In this document: positions 3,801 through 60,612 of the stretch, one piece after another
Position numbering within the stretch: the stretch's first letter is position 1
Layout: each line of letters opens with the position of its first letter
NCBI GenBank assembly: GCA_028715785.1
Contig: JAQURC010000001.1
Location: 12,766-76,765, forward strand
Length of the DNA stretch: 64,000 nt
DNA from: Candidatus Omnitrophota bacterium
GTDB lineage: Bacteria > Omnitrophota > Gorgyraeia > Gygaellales > Profunditerraquicolaceae
Direction: 5' to 3'
Position numbers and translations under genes: made by a program
The notes under the pieces: model-generated
Databases searched by the model: none
Told to the model about the DNA's origin: nothing
The model's input: the letters and a program-made list of their open reading frames with translations, nothing else

Positions 3801-3854
3801 AAACAAGGGGACGGTTCTCGAAAACAGAGAACCGTCCCCAATATTCCAATATTC

Positions 3855-5775: not shown

Positions 5776-5801
5776 GTAGGGGAGGTTTAAACCTCCCCTA
5801 C
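5776..5801. repeat. 26-bp perfect palindrome GTAGGGGAGGTTTAAACCTCCCCTAC (REP-like hairpin family, copy 1)
   Basis: Exact inverted repeat centred on TTTAAA. Intergenic between the pilO-like gene and gspG. Identical core at 11448 and 14488, covariant cores at 15911 and 60555. Confidence 0.8.
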
Positions 5802-11447: not shown

Positions 11448-11473
11448 GTAGGGGAGGTTTAAACCTCCCCTAC
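11448..11473. repeat. 26-bp palindrome GTAGGGGAGGTTTAAACCTCCCCTAC (REP-like, copy 2) with flanks CCAGAG/TCTGTGGATAA
   Basis: Identical core to 5776 and 14488. Between the two KS genes. Confidence 0.8.
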
Positions 11474-14251: not shown

Positions 14252-14491
14252 ATGGATATAAAAATAAAAGTTAAAGAAGTGTTGGCGAATTTGCTAAAAG
14301 TTAAAATTGAAGAGTTAAAGGATGAGGTATCTTTGATCAACAGTATCGGCGTGGATTCTACCGAGATGGTGGAGTCGGTAATTGCCCTGGAAAAATCATT
14401 TGGGGTCAAGCTTAGCCCCAAGGAGATCACCAAGAATTCGACCATTAACGATATCGTAAATAATATCCAGCCAAAGTTATCCACAGAGTAG
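14252..14491 (+). CDS. Acyl carrier protein
   Basis: 79 aa. GVDSTEMVE phosphopantetheine-attachment motif. The stop TAG lies inside the REP palindrome. Confidence 0.8.
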   Translation: MDIKIKVKEVLANLLKVKIEELKDEVSLINSIGVDSTEMVESVIALEKSFGVKLSPKEITKNSTINDIVNNIQPKLSTE

Positions 14492-14513
14492 GGGAGGTTT
14501 AAACCTCCCCTAC
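14488..14513. repeat. 26-bp palindrome GTAGGGGAGGTTTAAACCTCCCCTAC (REP-like, copy 3), left flank TTATCCACAGA
   Basis: Identical core. Overlaps the acp stop codon. Confidence 0.8.
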
Positions 14514-15910: not shown

Positions 15911-15936
15911 GTAGCGGACGTTTAAACGTCCGCTAC
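15911..15936. repeat. 26-bp palindrome GTAGCGGACGTTTAAACGTCCGCTAC (REP-like, copy 4; covariant arms)
   Basis: Same architecture and TTTAAA centre as 5776. Both arms changed in a complementary way. Confidence 0.75.
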
Positions 15937-31273: not shown

Positions 31274-33673
31274 ATGCATTACGATTTTAAAAAGGTCGAA
31301 GAAAAATGGCAGAAGCACTGGCAGAAAACCCATGCCTTCCGCGCGCAGGCCGACCCTAAGCGCAAAAAATATTACCTGTTGGAAATGTTTCCCTATCCCA
31401 GCGGTAAAATCCATATGGGCCATGTGCGTAATTACACCATCGGCGATGTCGCCAGCCGTTTTAAGACCCTGGAAGGTTATAACGTAATGCACCCGATGGG
31501 TTTTGATGCCTTTGGCCAGCCGGCGGAGAACGCGGCGATAAAAAATAAAACCAAGCCCGGCGACTGGACGCGTAAATGCATCAAGGAGATGGAAACAGAG
31601 TTAAAAAAAATGGGTTTTTCTTATGACTGGGAGCGGGAAGTTTCTACCTGCCAAAGCGATTATTATCAATGGAACCAGTGGATCTTCCTCAAAATGCTTG
31701 AACGCGGCCTGGCGTATAGGAAGGCTTCGCAAGTCAACTGGTGCCCAAGCTGCGCCACGACTTTAGCCAATGAAGAAGTTATCGAAGGCGGCTGCTGGCG
31801 CTGCCATACAAAAGTAGAACAAAAAGATTTAGAGCAATGGTATTTAAAGATTACCGAATATAAAGAAAGGTTGCTGGAGGATTTGAGCCAGCTTAAAGAT
31901 TGGCCCCCGCGGGTTTTGGCAATGCAGAATAACTGGATCGGCAAAAGCAGCGGTGTGGATATTTATTTTCGCCTGGAGAATAGCGATAAATTAATTTCAG
32001 TATTTACTACCCGGGTGGATACTATTTTTGGGGCAACCTATATTGTTTTGGCCCCGGAGCACCCGTTAGTTTTAGATTTGATTAAAGGCACACGTCAGGA
32101 AAAAGAGGCCTTAGAGTTTATTAAAAAGGTTGCCAGCGAAAGTAAAATAGTGCGCGCCGCATCCGATGTTAAAAAAGAAGGGGTTTTTACCGGAAGCTTC
32201 GCGATTAATCCGGTAAATAATGAAAAGGTCCCGGTTTGGATTGCCGATTATGTTTTGATGGAATATGGAACGGGTGCGATTATGGCTGTGCCTACGCATG
32301 ACGGGCGGGATTTTCTTTTTGCCAAAGAGCATAAATTGCCGATGCGTATTGTCATCTCGCCTAAAGACGGGTCTTTAAAATCCGCGGAAGAATTAACGCA
32401 GGCATATGAAGGTAATGGCGTGCAAATAAATTCCGGAGAATTTAACGGCTTAGATAATCGGGAGGCAAAGACAAAGATCGCCCAATGGATGGAGGCTAGG
32501 GGCATTGGTAAAATTCAAACGCATTGGCGTTTACGTGATTGGTTGATTTCCCGCCAGCGTTATTGGGGCACCCCGATACCGGTGATTTATTGCCCGGCCT
32601 GCGGCATTGTTCCTGTCCCTTGTCAAGATTTACCCATTGAGCTGCCCGCTGATGCGCCTTTTACCGGAGAAGGCGGAAGCCCTTTAGGCAAGGTCAAGAA
32701 ATTTGTAGAGGTAAAATGTCCTAAGTGTAAAGCAAATGCCCGGCGCGAAACCGATACAATGGCCACTTTTTTTGACTCCTCATGGTATTTCTTAAGGTTC
32801 TGCTCGCCTAAATTTAAAGCCGGACCGTTTGATGTGAATGAAGCCAAATACTGGATGACCGTTGACCAGTATATCGGCGGCATTGAACACGCGATCTTGC
32901 ATTTATTGTATTCCCGTTTTTTTACTAAATTTTTCCAGGATTTAAAGATGGTTGATTTCAGCGAGCCATTCGATAAACTGCTCACTCAAGGGATGGTCCT
33001 AAAAGACGGCGAGGTTATGTCAAAGTCCAGGGGCAATATCGTTGATCCGGACTCAATGATCAAAAATTACGGCGCCGATGCCCTGCGCCTGTTTATCTTA
33101 TTTGCCGCTCCGCCGGAAACCGAGCTGGAGTGGGAGGAGCGCGGGTTAGAAGGAGCGTATAAATTTTTAAACCGTGTCTGGCGGATCCAGGAAAATTTAA
33201 AAGACGATGCAGATCCGCAGGTATTAAAAGCTTTACACAGGACGATAAAAAAAGTAGGCGCGGATTTTAGCGAATTTAAGTTTAACACGGCTATTGCCAG
33301 CTTAATGGAGTTGACCAACGTTATTTATCAGTCAGGCGCGGATAAACAGGTATTTTCTGCCTTGATAATTATGCTTAGCCCGATTGTCCCGCATTTTGCC
33401 GAGGAGCTTTGGCAGATTTTAGGGCATAAGGAAAGTATATTTAAAACCGGCTGGCCTAAATATGATCCCCAGTTATTGATTGAAGAAAAAGTGGAGTTGG
33501 TGATCCAGGTTAACGGTAAGCTGCGCAGTAAAATTGAAGTGCCATGCGGCATATCCGAAGATAAGCTTAAGGAGCTGGTATTTAAAGATGAGAAATTGGC
33601 CCCTTGGCTGGAAGGCAAAACCCCGAAGAAATTCATTCTTGTCCCGCAAAAACTCGTCAATATCGTAATCTAA
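31274..33673 (+). CDS. leuS: Leucyl-tRNA synthetase
   Basis: [13 protein letters not shown] (HIGH). VMSKSRGN (KMSKS). CP1 editing domain. 799 aa. Confidence 0.95.
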
Positions 33674-33676
33674 TAA

Positions 33677-34385
33677 GGGGGACGTCCTCTTAGGGGACAC
33701 CCTTATATTAAAATAATTGTTAGAAGCGGCCTCTTTTTACGTCAATTAAAGTAAAAGGAGGATTTTTTATGCCAAGAAAAGCGCGAGAGTTGATTGACGG
33801 GGGACATTACCATGTTGTAACCAGGGGGATTGATTGTAGGAGATTATTTAGGGATGAAACAGATAACCAGTATTTTTTAGACATCATGGCTGCTAATCTG
33901 CCGAAATTCAAAATTTCAATTTTTCATTATTGTCTTATGGTAAACCACATTCATCTGTTGATTAAAGCCATAAGAGCAGCGGATCTGCCAAAGTTTATGC
34001 AGGTAGTTTTACAAGGATACGCTCATTATTTCAGAAAGAAATACCTTTCGGCAGGATTTATTTTTCAGAACCGATATAGAAGCCGGTTAATCGATAATGA
34101 TCTCTATCTCTTGGAATGCGGCCGGTATATCGAAAAGAACCCTCTGAGATCAAAAATAGTGTCAGAGCTTTCCAGATATCGCTGGAGCAGTTATCTGCTA
34201 TATGCAACTGGTAAACAAAATGACATAGTTAAGGCATTGGATCCTTTATATTTAGATTTAGCCAGTACAGACGAGAAACGCAGGGAGGCGTATGTTAATT
34301 ATGTCTTACAGGGGCGGCCATATGAAGATATTTTAGATAAAGAATTTCATATCAAATAGGGTGTCCCTTTTTAGGACGTCCCCCC
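33677..34385 (+). mobile_element. REP-associated tyrosine transposase (RAYT) unit: tnpA-REP gene flanked by 26-bp inverted repeats
   Basis: Left IR GGGGGACGTCCTCTTAGGGGACACCC (33677-33702). Right IR GGTGTCCCTTTTTAGGACGTCCCCCC (34360-34385). They are reverse complements apart from the central loop. Confidence 0.75.
33769..34359 (+). CDS. IS200/IS605-like Y1 (HuH) transposase of the REP-associated (RAYT) type
   Basis: 196 aa. HuH motif GHYHVVTRG. Second His cluster NHIHLLI. Catalytic Tyr region QNRYRSRLIDND...RYIEKNP. Typical RAYT size. Confidence 0.8.
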   Translation: MPRKARELIDGGHYHVVTRGIDCRRLFRDETDNQYFLDIMAANLPKFKISIFHYCLMVNHIHLLIKAIRAADLPKFMQVVLQGYAHYFRKKYLSAGFIFQNRYRSRLIDNDLYLLECGRYIEKNPLRSKIVSELSRYRWSSYLLYATGKQNDIVKALDPLYLDLASTDEKRREAYVNYVLQGRPYEDILDKEFHIK

Positions 34386-34748
34386 AATTAAAACATCCTT
34401 AATGTCAAAAAGCAGTCTTTGGTAATCGATGGGTTTTTCGACATAGACGGTGATCCCGCTTTTGGCGGCGACATGCTTGTCGATCTCTTCATGTTTTAAG
34501 GAGGTGGCGATAATCGGTGTATCGATAAACTCCGGCAGGCTTTTTATATCCTGGGCGACTTTAAAACCGCTTTCATCCGGCAGGACCAGATCAAGGAGTA
34601 TGCAATCCGGTTTCTCCGCCTTAACTTTTTCTACGCCTTCCTTGCCGCTGTAGGCAGTTACTACCTGGTAACCCGCCTTAAGTAACGCTTCCTTATTTTC
34701 CTTGGCGATGTTGTAATCATCGTCAATGATCAGGATTTTCTTAGGCAT
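34371..34748 (-). CDS. Single-domain response regulator (CheY-like receiver)
   Basis: MPKKILIIDDD...ILLDLVLPDESG...ATSLKHE receiver motifs. Start chosen at MPKK, not the longer ORF-track frame. The stop overlaps the RAYT right IR. Confidence 0.75.
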   Translation of the reverse strand: MPKKILIIDDDYNIAKENKEALLKAGYQVVTAYSGKEGVEKVKAEKPDCILLDLVLPDESGFKVAQDIKSLPEFIDTPIIATSLKHEEIDKHVAAKSGITVYVEKPIDYQRLLFDIKDVLIGGTS

Positions 34749-34890
34749 AATTAAATTATACACTAAAAAACCCATGATTACAATTAGATAAGGCCCTGTT
34801 TCCCGATTGGCTGGGAAACAGTTTCTCATTCGATAGTTAGATTATGGGGTTTTGTGCGTCTATTGAAGCGGAAAGGAGAGCCAAAGCGGC

Positions 34891-35220
34891 ATGTTTAATT
34901 TTACCCCGGAAGAAAGAAAGGTCATTCTGTTCATTTTAGGGCTGGCGTTTTGCGGGCTGGCGTTAAGTAATTTAGCCAAAGCCGGCTGCCGCATCGAGAG
35001 AATAGTTTGTCCGCAAGTCCAATTAGCCAGAATAAACCTTAATCAAGTAACGTTGGAAGAATTAACCCGGTTTAAATGCGTCTCGGCGAAATTGGCTCAA
35101 GCCATCATAGAGCGCCGTAACCTGGGTAAAAAATTTGCCAGCTTAGAGGAGCTCAAAGAGGTTAAAGGGATAGGGGATAAACGCTACGAGAAATTAAAGG
35201 AGGTATTCTTTATCGAATGA
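34891..35220 (+). CDS. comEA: ComEA-like helix-hairpin-helix DNA-binding competence protein
   Basis: N-terminal TM. INLNQVTLEELTRFKCVSAKLAQAIIERRN and ELKEVKGIGDKRYEKLK HhH motifs. Confidence 0.7.
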   Translation: MFNFTPEERKVILFILGLAFCGLALSNLAKAGCRIERIVCPQVQLARINLNQVTLEELTRFKCVSAKLAQAIIERRNLGKKFASLEELKEVKGIGDKRYEKLKEVFFIE

Positions 35221-60526: not shown

Positions 60527-60612
60527 AAGGGGACGTCTATTCTTTCTGTGCTTTGTAGCTGACGTTTAAACGTCAGCTACTCTGTGGATAAAAAATAGAA
60601 CGTCCCCTTTAT
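60527..60612. repeat. Nested palindrome: outer arms AAAGGGGACGT(T)CTATT enclosing 26-bp REP-like palindrome GTAGCTGACGTTTAAACGTCAGCTAC (copy 5, 60555-60580) plus TCTGTGGATAA flank
   Basis: Inner palindrome is covariant with copies 1-4. Outer arms share the GGGGACGT motif with the RAYT terminal IRs. Confidence 0.75.

Follow-up and report, generated by a model that had tools for sequence, protein, structure and literature searches.

Results

Organisation of the locus

A single Y1 gene was found in the 64-kb stretch of Omnitrophota DNA analysed here (the window). It is part of a unit of about 706 bp, in which a left end of 25 nt and a leader of 66 nt precede the 591-bp gene and an inverted right end of 25 nt follows it; the unit lies between leuS and a convergent response-regulator gene. 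The features of the locus are the following:

31274–33673, + strand: leuS, context gene and upstream boundary of the insertion site
33678–33702, + strand: left terminal inverted repeat of 25 nt, GGGGACGTCC-TCTTA-GGGGACACCC, beginning 4 nt past the leuS stop
33720–33747, + strand: promoter-like motif TTAGAA-N14-CGTCAATT, a putative promoter whose second box falls in the hairpin loop of the leader
33730–33761, + strand: leader hairpin, with 5' arm CCTCTTTTTAC (33730–33740), loop GTCAATTAAA and 3' arm GTAAAAGGAGG (33751–33761)
33769–34359, + strand: Y1 HUH nuclease/transposase gene, ORF of 196 aa, assigned by Pfam, homolog motifs and an AF2 model
34359–34383, − strand: right terminal inverted repeat of 25 nt, reading GGGGACGTCC-TAAAAA-GGGACACCC on the minus strand
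34371–34748, − strand: convergent stand-alone response-regulator gene (context)

The first base of the right repeat is the final base of the Y1 stop codon, and a distance of 0–5 nt from the Y1 stop to the right repeat is seen in nearly all homologs. As already observed in an earlier sequence-only reading of this DNA, the right repeat also overlaps the stop codon of the response-regulator gene (TTA on the + strand, 34371–34373), whose frame enters the repeat by 4 codons (GGTS). In relatives the same gene either reads into the repeat too (L104, EGTS) or stops just outside it (L001 and L210).

The 25-nt ends

A repeat search retrieved inverted arms of 33 nt with 82% complementarity, at 33671–33703 and 34358–34390. 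The sequence-only reading had described intact 26-bp inverted repeats; inverted repeats do flank the gene, but they are identical at 22 of 26 positions and are not exact reverse complements. A 12-nt block (GGGGGACGTCCT) and a 9-nt block (GGGACACCC) are shared perfectly by the two ends, and the 5 nt between the blocks diverge. Each end is bipartite, with two GGGGAC motifs 15–16 nt apart, and its length is constant at 25 nt. The outer block (GGGGACGT) holds the palindrome GGACGTCC, which is its own reverse complement. Comparison was made with TIRtrons, units formed by a TIR-associated tyrosine transposase (TIRYT; Di Nocera, De Gregorio & Rocco 2013, PMC3733652), whose main TIR type, not common to all TIRYTs, carries the motif GGGGWSAS. 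The inner block (GGGGACAC) fits this consensus, while the outer block departs from it at positions 7–8.

The pattern GGGGACGTYCY-N5-GGGACACCC occurs at exactly two sites of the window, with 0 mismatches, corresponding to the two ends, and was not matched in any shuffle. No further copy of the 25-nt element was detected in the 64 kb, the full 26-mer found itself alone in the window when up to 3 mismatches were allowed, and the 7-mer GGGGACG was not over-represented there (7 vs 5.7 expected).

Outside the window, the same 25-nt element was found upstream of homologs at other loci. Indeed, 25-nt ends flank homologs of 46–89% identity at other loci (RmuC, PBP/tmk and others), including homologs in MAGs labelled Aminicenantes and Deltaproteobacteria; the ends accompany the gene when it changes locus or phylum. 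In homologs of about 40–45% identity the ends are different yet still inverted. More distant relatives, P. aeruginosa and R. rubrum plasmid genes among them, are arranged alike, with TIRs of the GGGGACAG or GGGGTCAG type, in agreement with the description of TIRYTs (PMC3733652).

Flanks of this kind could also be read as REP hairpins belonging to a high-copy REP/REPIN population kept by the enzyme, the gene being then a canonical RAYT in a REPtron, a system reportedly described by Nunvar (2010), Bertels and Rainey (2011), Ton-Hoang (2012) and Messing (2012). We regard this as quite unlikely. The flanking repeats have no 5' GT[AG]G foot, and the DNA hairpin within a single end is weak (z −2.3/−2.6 for the left end, −0.7/−1.1 for the right). 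No compensatory changes were detected among 103 variant copies of the end, and the common variant GGTACC breaks the proposed stem. Because of this weak fold, the lack of compensatory changes and the stem-breaking variant, the ends were not called REPs. Assignment to the CGTC-tagged REP superfamily, considered since CGTC is present in the ends, was also discarded, this superfamily needing an AT-started stem of 8–9 bp and a CCA tail that do not fit. As judged from their sequence, the flanks fit bipartite terminal inverted repeats of the TIRYT/TIRtron type rather than REPs.

Other palindromes in the window

The recurrence of GGGGACGT in a nested palindrome, proposed in the sequence-only reading, was confirmed: the window contains 4 copies (0.93 expected, with 1 of 100 shuffles reaching 4), and both non-end copies are in the outer arms of the palindrome at 60529–60607, which has just its outer 8–11 nt in common with the ends. 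On the contrary, the link proposed through GGACGT with the palindrome at 15911 concerns a 6-mer at chance level, and the palindrome itself is a member of a distinct GTAG...CTAC family. The further suggestion that the enzyme may mobilise the palindrome family of the window was not supported either, the GTAG palindromes showing no link to the gene and no third copy of the 25-nt element being present in the 64 kb. The GTAG...TTTAAA...CTAC palindromes were considered as substrates and rejected, as they do not flank the gene and have at most a 6-mer in common with the ends. Both the position of these real GTAG palindromes, away from the gene flanks, and the lack of any additional copy of the element in the window also speak against a canonical RAYT.

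The Y1 protein

The 196-aa protein matched Pfam Y1_Tnp with 52 bits (cut-off 23) and, at E <= 1, no other Pfam family, the C-terminal HTH being absent; Bac_DnaA_C HTH domains occur in the nearest longer, distant homologs of 321–338 aa. H60-I-H62 (NHIHLL) forms the HUH motif and Y120, within RYIEKNP, is the catalytic tyrosine. Residues H60, H62, Y120, N124 and P125 are invariant across 38 homologs, and a tail motif, Y137-x-W-S-S, is conserved as well. An HUH motif had thus been rightly expected, but it is not the 'HYH' at residues 13–15, of which only H15 is invariant in the 38 homologs; the expected catalytic tyrosine of the Y1 transposase type was found in Y120, with the motif Y-x3-NP. Overall, the window protein displays NHIH, FQ and YIEKNP, the family consensus for the latter being YIERNP.

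The best-scoring NCBIfam family was REP_Tyr_transpos (NF047646, equivalog), at 54.4 bits and below its cut-off of 80. A PDB search with the single Y1 sequence found nothing, while the family profile matched 4ER8 (E. coli TnpA_REP) with E = 1e-6, followed by ISDra2 TnpA with 1e-4. The AF2 model (pLDDT 90.7) had again 4ER8 as its best fold match (E = 2e-8, TM 0.65/0.77). The RAYT identity initially proposed holds to the extent that the protein lies on the RAYT side of the Y1 HUH family (54 bits vs 18 for the IS200 model, with 4ER8 as best structure), but the curated RAYT threshold is not reached. For a canonical RAYT, the closest structure and curated family are in favour; the score under the cut-off is against it, and so is FQ, given that subclasses associated with GTAG REPs have WQ or WE (Quentin 2018, PMC6006769).

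The Y1 gene has a dN/dS of 0.06–0.17, with dS up to 2.2, and leuS a dN/dS of 0.05–0.07; purifying selection on the Y1 gene is as strong as on leuS. Y1 genes were found as one copy per contig, none near-identical, and each protein cluster was seen on 1–5 contigs. Only distant relatives, with at most 41% identity, were retrieved from plasmid and phage collections. An exact search of public assemblies for the Y1 protein of the window gave no record; the LeuS of the window is 100% identical to P0074.

These data bear on a second alternative, an ordinary IS200/IS605 insertion sequence with TnpA alone, transposing via subterminal hairpins. The unit does match Pfam Y1_Tnp and have the same catalytic fold, it is an insertion (see below), it measures about 706 bp against the 707 bp of IS200, and it has in common with IS200 the order of left-end structure, SD-sequestering stem-loop and transposase gene (tnpA in IS200; PMC4513863). 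Nevertheless, this possibility appears very remote. The tyrosine motif is Y-x3-NP and not the Y-x3-Q of IS200 (PMC6006769), and the NCBIfam IS200 model (NF033573) gives 18.3 bits against a cut-off of 55; by this motif and these scores the protein stands apart from ordinary IS200 TnpA, clustering with which would, in the sequence-only reading, have spoken against its proposal. Moreover, IS200 (TnpA of subclass 1.1) has same-strand subterminal hairpins, has no terminal inverted repeats and is multicopy, with several near-identical copies, whereas the unit has inverted ends, a single copy per contig without near-identical copies, and a long-stable position under purifying selection.

The leader of the Y1 gene

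The Shine-Dalgarno sequence of the Y1 gene lies within the 3' arm of the leader hairpin, which has an RNA minimum free energy of −13.8 kcal/mol (z = −3.4). The fold was seen in 10 of 10 homologous leaders when these were folded singly. In an alignment of 11 distinct leaders fitted to the model, 115 of 121 cells were paired and 8 of 11 pairs had changed on both sides; this guided alignment and the single folds were required because RNAalifold, run on a MAFFT alignment, retrieved no more than the 8 outer pairs. Rfam gave no meaningful match in the region 33400–34600.

The promoter-like motif was matched twice in the window, against 0.21 matches expected; the site outside the leader is at 34837–34864, upstream of comEA. 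Y1 genes at unrelated loci also have the motif upstream, and comEA retains it in relatives without Y1. A simple sigma-70 scan called no + strand promoter in the leader.

The insertion site in relatives

The order leuS, Y1, response regulator, comEA is kept down to 77% Y1 identity, the filled site being found in the window, L001/L002, L003, L104, L210 and the P0004 contig (in the latter by gene order only). The site is empty in L211 and L212, where the stops of leuS and of the response-regulator gene are 2 nt apart or overlapping, which bears out the insertion between these two genes suggested at first. In L215 and L216 the same junction is occupied by a gene-less doublet from another TIR family. 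Bounded by its two ends, the unit either lies as a whole between the convergent stops or is missing there altogether, and filled and empty sites are explained equally well by one gain and by one precise loss. Within the carrying clade, the unit holds its position under purifying selection.

Gene-less copies and doublets in relatives

A scan for dispersed copies of the end retrieved no fewer than 147 matches, spread over at least 58 genomes; of the matches listed, 133 were exactly 25 nt long. Among the matches listed, the gene was present on only 9 of 119 stretches. The sequence-only reading would have been contradicted by the absence of such copies elsewhere; they occur in relatives, mostly without the gene. 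The copies per relative genome (lower bounds) range from 4 to 15, reaching at least 15, and in several copy-rich genomes no Y1 gene was seen in the stretches retrieved. Again among the matches listed, 18 of 20 adjacent pairs were in the order '+ then −' and none of the 20 in the order '− then +', and gene-less doublets numbered at least 14, with spacers of 8–246 nt. The gene-less copies in relatives are typically inverted doublets of fixed polarity, REPIN- or MITE-like and in most cases with the GGGGACGT block facing outward. In the genome PCWB01, where Y1 is 78% identical and in the same synteny, at least 6 extra copies were found, including 2 doublets whose arms match the end variants of that genome's own Y1 gene.

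REPIN-like dispersed inverted doublets in relatives, together with a single-copy, syntenic gene under purifying selection, would be in line with a canonical RAYT; the copy numbers of relatives, moderate (lower bounds of 6–15) and not in the hundreds, are against it.

The matches listed were enriched outside long ORFs (53%, vs 12% for random 25-mers), and the dispersed copies in relatives are bordered by A-runs and T-runs. The latter feature, resembling bidirectional terminators, and the location of the repeats exactly at the gene ends are what would be expected if the Y1 gene had been domesticated and moved no DNA, the repeats being relics that now act as terminators or insulators between leuS, Y1 and the regulator. 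The position of the gene, fixed in all close relatives, its dN/dS, as low as that of leuS, and a window with no second copy of the element beyond the ends agree with such a scenario, which we nonetheless deem unlikely. The 12-nt and 9-nt blocks are perfect at both ends despite saturated synonymous sites (dS 1.7–2.2) and accompany the gene at unrelated loci and in unrelated phyla, which argues for their recognition by the encoded protein and not for a generic terminator role. In addition, neither end was called by the terminator scan, the PCWB01 doublets copy the end variants of the gene itself, and the junction between leuS and the response regulator was independently hit by another TIR doublet.

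Discussion

The unit is probably a TIRtron encoding a TIRYT-type enzyme related to REP-associated tyrosine transposases, a reading that we hold with good confidence. It belongs to a known, barely studied class and is not a new kind of system. To our knowledge no TIRYT biochemistry has been reported, and TIRYTs are scarcely mentioned in the literature searched.

As in TIRtrons, a RAYT-like Y1 HUH gene lies between non-GTAG TIRs, with an inner block fitting GGGGWSAS; the left repeat is tens of nt upstream of the gene and the right one at its stop, a layout also found for the P. aeruginosa and R. rubrum plasmid genes; and in some genomes, here those of relatives, the repeats are also moderately abundant as singles and dimers, which in the original survey are found elsewhere in the genome for some TIRYTs only (PMC3733652). 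TIRYT is largely equivalent to TnpA_Y1 subclass 2.1 (Quentin 2018, PMC6006769) and to RAYT Group 1 (Bertels 2017, PMC5581495). Proteins of subclass 2.1 have the motifs NHVH or NH[YF]H, W[EQ] or FQ, and YIELNP or Y[IV]HLNP, FQ being listed for this subclass only (Table 1, PMC6006769), a median length of 238 aa and a C-terminal HTH (Bac_DnaA_C, HTH_23 or HTH_28). The FQ and YIE-x-NP motifs of the window protein are closest to subclass 2.1, and its nearest longer homologs have the Bac_DnaA_C HTH. On the other hand, the window protein is of 196 aa and without the C-terminal HTH of most described members, and its repeat is bipartite, fixed at 25 nt and conserved across MAGs labelled as different phyla; no repeats were reported for subclass 2.1 by Quentin et al. 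(PMC6006769). The host, the uncultivated phylum Omnitrophota, is outside the TIRYT surveys.

The unit also resembles RAYTs: E. coli TnpA_REP (4ER8) is the best solved match and Y-x3-NP is common to both, a single copy of the gene is inherited vertically and evolves like a housekeeping gene, under purifying selection, and its flanking elements are inverted, with dispersed doublets in relatives analogous to REPINs. The unit differs from RAYTs in having ends without the GT[AG]G guide tetranucleotide and without a stable REP hairpin, a protein under the curated threshold with F for the conserved W of the W-Q motif, and lower copy numbers (as lower bounds, in relatives). Empty-site evidence and an SD-sequestering leader are, as far as we know, without description for TIRtrons.

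For a TIRtron of this type, the following mechanism may be proposed. The enzyme would bind the bipartite end on single-stranded DNA, e.g., at replication forks, and would cut and rejoin beside the outer block via Y120, with a metal held by H60 and H62. Acting in trans, it might move or copy the gene-less doublets, and the whole unit would have moved once. Because GGACGTCC reads identically on the two strands, the octamer found at one end recurs on the same strand at the other, and a strand-specific enzyme could in this way use inverted ends. We infer the cleavage sites and the strand logic, since we know of no Y1 enzyme shown to act on inverted ends.

Expression of Y1 would be held low, as read-through transcripts from leuS may fold the anti-SD arm onto the Shine-Dalgarno sequence, while the promoter-like motif, with its second box in the loop, might give rise to transcripts devoid of that arm. 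By analogy, we infer that such a brake resembles the left end of IS200 and the read-through protection of other insertion sequences.

It is conceivable, although we put it forward only tentatively and would sooner bet against it, that the unit and the gene-less doublets are an autonomous/non-autonomous pair (an insertion sequence and its MITEs), moved by the Y1 HUH enzyme and still active in several phyla. If so, Y1 HUH chemistry would operate on inverted ends, which as far as we know is undescribed for any insertion-sequence family, and through the palindromic GGACGTCC the two ends would present an identical cleavage signal on one strand. A weaker addition to this scenario is that, as the Y1 leader and comEA have the promoter-like motif in common, expression of the Y1 enzyme could be induced along with that of DNA-uptake genes, at times when the cell contains single-stranded DNA.

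The locus bears on how Y1 HUH enzymes spread REP, REPIN and TIR repeat families. It offers a very small and well-delimited example, with both ends delimited by comparing the same site when filled, when empty and when occupied otherwise, a 25-nt end kept with its protein across labelled phyla, matching gene-less doublets in relatives and a predicted built-in translational brake. With a unit so small and delimited, binding, cleavage and strand transfer can readily be assayed on short oligonucleotides. The locus also shows that elements of this kind shape intergenic regions in the uncultivated Omnitrophota.

The Y1 gene and its inverted ends

The following features were located between leuS and the response-regulator (RR) gene:

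up to 33673, leuS, upstream neighbour of the Y1 ORF
33678-33702 (+), left 25-nt end
33769-34359 (+), Y1 ORF, 196 aa
34359-34383 (-), right 25-nt end
34371, end of the convergent, stand-alone RR gene, downstream neighbour of the Y1 ORF

An inverted-repeat search retrieved arms of 33 nt around the ORF (33671-33703 and 34358-34390, 82% complementary). The sequence-only reading had described intact 26-nt inverted repeats, one the exact reverse complement of the other. Inverted repeats do flank the gene, but the two 26-mers, placed in register, are identical at 22/26 positions and therefore are not exact reverse complements, the blocks of perfect identity, 12 nt (GGGGGACGTCCT) and 9 nt (GGGACACCC), lying on either side of a divergent centre; the 26-mer had no match in the window besides itself at up to 3 mismatches. 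The family pattern GGGGACGTYCY-N5-GGGACACCC, derived from relatives and afterwards run on the window, matched exactly the two 25-nt ends with 0 mismatches each and was absent from every shuffled sequence, and no third copy of the 25-nt element was found in the 64-kb window within 5 mismatches.

The Y1 stop codon and the right repeat share one base, the last of the codon and the first of the repeat. The overlap of this repeat with the RR stop codon, already noticed, was confirmed: the stop lies in the repeat centre, the last four RR codons (GGTS) being repeat sequence. In L001 and L210, two stretches from other genomes, the RR stop is just outside the repeat. Reading of RR into the repeat was observed in the window (34371-34385) and at the right end of L104, ending in ...GGTS and ...EGTS, respectively, the original RR stop having been lost independently in these two lineages. 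Several units with the gene have a tandem duplication of the outer block (TAAGGGGGAC or GGACGTCCCC) at one end (L210:4901-4925; L104:1248-1290; L103 and L112 flanks); such duplications may record repeated rounds of cleavage and joining.

The protein

In accordance with its identification as a Y1 transposase, the 196-aa protein scored 52 bits with Pfam Y1_Tnp (cut-off 23). The RAYT model was the best NCBIfam match, yet below its cut-off (54.4 vs 80), and the IS200 model scored 18.3 (cut-off 55), so the protein did not turn out to be an ordinary IS200 TnpA, one part of what would have contradicted the earlier proposal. A family profile search placed E. coli TnpA_REP (4ER8) first (E = 1e-6), with ISDra2 TnpA behind (1e-4); the best fold match of the AlphaFold model (pLDDT 90.7) was likewise 4ER8 (E = 2e-8, TM 0.65/0.77), IS608 and ISDra2 TnpA being clearly behind.

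Alignment of 38 homologs showed H15, R19, G20, H60, H62, L64, G96, Y120, I121, N124, P125 and Y137 to be invariant. The HYH previously taken for the HUH motif sits at residues 13-15 of the protein and is not that motif; the invariance of H60, H62 and Y120 identifies H60-I-H62 (NHIHLL) as the true HUH motif and Y120, in RYIEKNP, as the catalytic Tyr. As judged from sequence, the Y1 HUH fold is catalytically intact. At E <= 1e-3 the superfamily counts 26,396 cluster representatives, and 65 at E <= 1e-30; the close family (195-202 aa, >=48% identity) comes from Omnitrophota metagenomes, with 1-5 contigs per cluster. No second Y1 gene was found in the window.

Filled and empty sites in relatives

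The same site was compared across relatives through LeuS orthologs.

Content of the leuS/RR site in relatives (LeuS identity to the window in parentheses)
L001/L002 and L210 (93%): Y1 unit; order leuS, Y1, RR, comEA, comEC
L003 (88%): Y1 unit; same order
L104 (88%): Y1 unit; same order
P0004 contig (relative known by gene order only): Y1 unit; same order
L211 (83%): empty; leuS and RR stop codons 2 nt apart
L212 (81%): empty; leuS and RR stop codons overlapping
L215:3945-4030 (85%) and L216:3905-3962 (84%): gene-less inverted doublet (two inverted copies of an end) of another terminal inverted repeat (TIR) type, ATGGGGTCAGAGCTAATTTATCT, at the junction

The proposed insertion between leuS and RR is thus borne out by L211 and L212, where leuS directly meets RR. 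The segment separating filled from empty sites, from 0-4 nt past the leuS stop to 0-3 nt before the RR stop, coincides with the unit that the two 25-nt ends enclose. A single gain or a single precise loss would explain this pattern equally well; either way, the repeats delimit a mobile block. The other-type doublet in L215 and L216 makes the convergent junction a repeated landing site, which therefore has been hit at least twice.

Among syntenic copies, dN/dS of Y1 was 0.06-0.17 (dS up to 2.2) and that of leuS 0.05-0.07, and the 12-nt and 9-nt blocks at both ends stay perfect across the same distances. The Y1 gene is maintained by selection.

Conservation of the ends with homologs

Homologs 46-61% identical, some of them in MAGs labelled Aminicenantes and Deltaproteobacteria, occupy unrelated loci, adjoining RmuC or PBP and tmk, and keep both the bipartite element and its layout (left copy 66-190 nt upstream, right copy 0-5 nt past the stop). 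At ~40-45% identity the ends are different, still inverted, with both arms altered together (e.g., GGTGCCATCC/GGATGGCACC in L132). An unbiased scan of metagenomes yielded 80 more distant relatives (31-55% identical, 145-386 aa), which are frequently bordered by inverted repeats with cores GGGGAC(G/A)G, GGGGTCAG or GGGACGTTG; the longest of these proteins have a Bac_DnaA_C HTH. Two plasmid genes annotated as 'transposase' share the architecture of the window unit, with a perfect 32-nt TIR (AAAGGGGACAGATTT...) in P. aeruginosa and a 19-nt TIR (TTAAAAGGGGTCAGACCCC) in R. rubrum. The ends, which mark the limits of the insertion, are conserved together with the protein.

Dispersed copies without the gene

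When one genome per species was scanned for the exact pattern (at least 119 stretches, element length allowed 22-28 nt), at least 147 matches were obtained in at least 58 genome records, 133 being exactly 25 nt long among the matches listed. By our own estimate, which assumes uniform composition, some 52 matches would arise by chance across the whole collection, and chance probably accounts for the single matches in actinobacterial and similar genomes. The suggested search for the flanking repeats elsewhere thus found them dispersed in relatives, mostly without the gene: a Y1 homolog is encoded in 9/119 stretches among the matches listed. At least 15 copies were counted in CAYTTR01, at least 9 in an Aminicenantes MAG, and at least 8 each in a Desulfaltia MAG and in the Omnitrophica MAG PCWB01, whose Y1 is 78% identical to that of the window and lies at the same leuS site.

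Adjacent pairs less than 1.5 kb apart, among the matches listed, were '+ then -' in 18/20 cases, '- then -' in 2/20 and '- then +' in 0/20; in the '+ then -' pairs GGGGACGT points outward, as around the Y1 gene. Gene-less doublets of fixed polarity occur in relatives (14 pairs among the matches listed, spacers of 8-246 nt). The doublet arms of PCWB01 are left-type and right-type variants of its own gene ends, and arms within a doublet are more alike than arms across genomes (6.9 vs 4.6 of 8 variable positions). The element is outside long ORFs in 53% of copies vs 12% of random 25-mers. The dispersed copies show properties of REPIN- or MITE-like derivatives.

Other arrangements were also observed. 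The RR-comEA spacer of L212 (5300-5395) contains four inner blocks alone (GGGGACACCC / GGGTGTCCCC), two per orientation. L057 (5157-6238) has three 25-nt ends in direct orientation, all of them continuing into TGATGGCGCG (left-end fragments) and one having a Y1-type leader without a Y1 ORF; a pair of genes for a HigB-like toxin and an HTH antitoxin is enclosed by these copies, an arrangement suggestive of one-ended copying or cargo capture. Outward-polarity pairs separated by 914-927 nt without an intervening Y1 gene occur at L016:1544-2520, enclosing a 202-aa putative lipoprotein ORF, and at L086:2895-3858, with no clear gene; they may represent alternative cargo, or single copies independent of each other.

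Leader hairpin and promoter-like motif

The leader between the left end and the ATG (CCTCTTTTTAC-GTCAATTAAA-GTAAAAGGAGG, 33730-33761) is predicted to fold by pairing the Shine-Dalgarno (SD) sequence (-13.8 kcal/mol, z = -3.4). The same fold was obtained in 10/10 homologous leaders tested, with z <= -3.4 in eight, and a covariance-model alignment of 11 distinct leaders, fitted to the model, has 115/121 cells paired and changes on both sides in 8/11 pairs. IS200 likewise has a left-end structure and an SD-sequestering stem-loop (PMC4513863).

The leader loop and an upstream box form the motif TTAGA-N14-CGTCWATT, with 2 matches in the window vs 0.21 expected, one in the Y1 leader and the other upstream of comEA:

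34837-34864, TTAGAT-N14-CGTCTATT, comEA following at 34891

The motif also precedes comEA in L211 (5351-5377) and L212 (5392-5418), without the Y1 unit. A simple sigma-70 scan of the leader called no promoter; this lineage may use the motif as a special type of promoter, and co-regulation of Y1 with DNA-uptake genes is conceivable. As the second box of the motif falls within the hairpin loop, transcripts starting from it would lack the anti-SD arm; leuS read-through transcripts would contain it and be poorly translated.

Other palindromes in the window

5776-5801, 11448-11473, 14488-14513, 15911-15936 and 60555-60580, perfect palindromes GTAG-N6-TTTAAA-N6-CTAC
60529-60607, nested palindrome with outer arms GGGGACGT(T)CTATT... 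and a 26-nt GTAG...CTAC palindrome as core
3807-3839, perfect 13-nt inverted repeat, GGGGACGGTTCTC-7 nt-GAGAACCGTCCCC

Two of these had been connected to the Y1 enzyme. The nested palindrome, then placed at 60527-60612, does share AAAGGGGACGT with the 25-nt ends in its outer arms, but nothing more, making a relationship plausible, not established. A different repeat type (AAAGGGGACGGTTCTATT...), present at L123:5790-5860 as AAAGGGGACGGTTCTATTTTTC...GAAAAATAGAACCGTCCCCTTT, resembles these arms, and the nested palindrome may have arisen by entry of a GTAG palindrome into a TIR-type doublet. As for the 15911 variant, no evidence of a link to Y1 was obtained; it belongs to the separate GTAG-N6-TTTAAA-N6-CTAC family. 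Three members of this family are identical and some have the flank ttatccacaga/tctgtggataa; they occupy short gaps past stop codons and resemble the 'double-foot' GTAG REPs of another RAYT subclass, with no cognate gene in the window. The 12-13-nt sequence of 3807-3839 recurs in L137, L180 and L200 as the TIRs flanking Y1 genes of 211-255 aa. The repeat at 3807-3839 thus resembles a gene-less doublet belonging to a second TIR family, the enzyme of which the window does not encode.

Proposed mechanism and class assignment

IS608 TnpA and TnpA_REP cut and rejoin DNA on their hairpins via a 5'-phosphotyrosine. By analogy, the Y1 enzyme would recognise the bipartite end on single-stranded DNA, cutting and rejoining beside the outer block via a 5'-phosphotyrosine at Y120. 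A hairpin inside a single end is weakly predicted by folding, and variant copies of the end gave it no support; the arms of a doublet could pair mutually along 25 bp. Because the outer core GGACGTCC is self-complementary, a single strand carries it at both ends.

RAYT-like genes with terminal inverted repeats instead of GTAG REPs have been described as TIRYTs in 'TIRtrons', many of whose repeats have GGGGWSAS in common and some of which form moderately abundant families of singles and dimers (Di Nocera et al. 2013, PMC3733652). In the literature searched, the term TIRYT appears in two works only. Most TIRYTs belong to TnpA_Y1 subclass 2.1, Bertels' Group 1, characterised by NH[VYF]H, FQ or W[EQ], YIELNP or Y[IV]HLNP, an SS motif in the tail and an HTH at the C-terminus; no REPs were found for it (Quentin et al. 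2018, PMC6006769). The window protein has NHIH, FQ, YIEKNP and W-S-S, without the HTH, and the inner block GGGGACAC of its ends fits GGGGWSAS; on these grounds we file the locus as a putative TIRtron with a short, HTH-less TIRYT, rather than as a canonical REPtron or an IS200. The sequence-only reading as a RAYT holds in that the protein is nearest to TnpA_REP, but being below the RAYT cut-off and TIR-flanked it is better termed a TIRYT. That reading was of a real element and largely sound, with corrections made here to the HUH motif, to the identity between the repeats and to the class. TIRtrons are a known kind of element, little studied, to which the window locus adds one more member.
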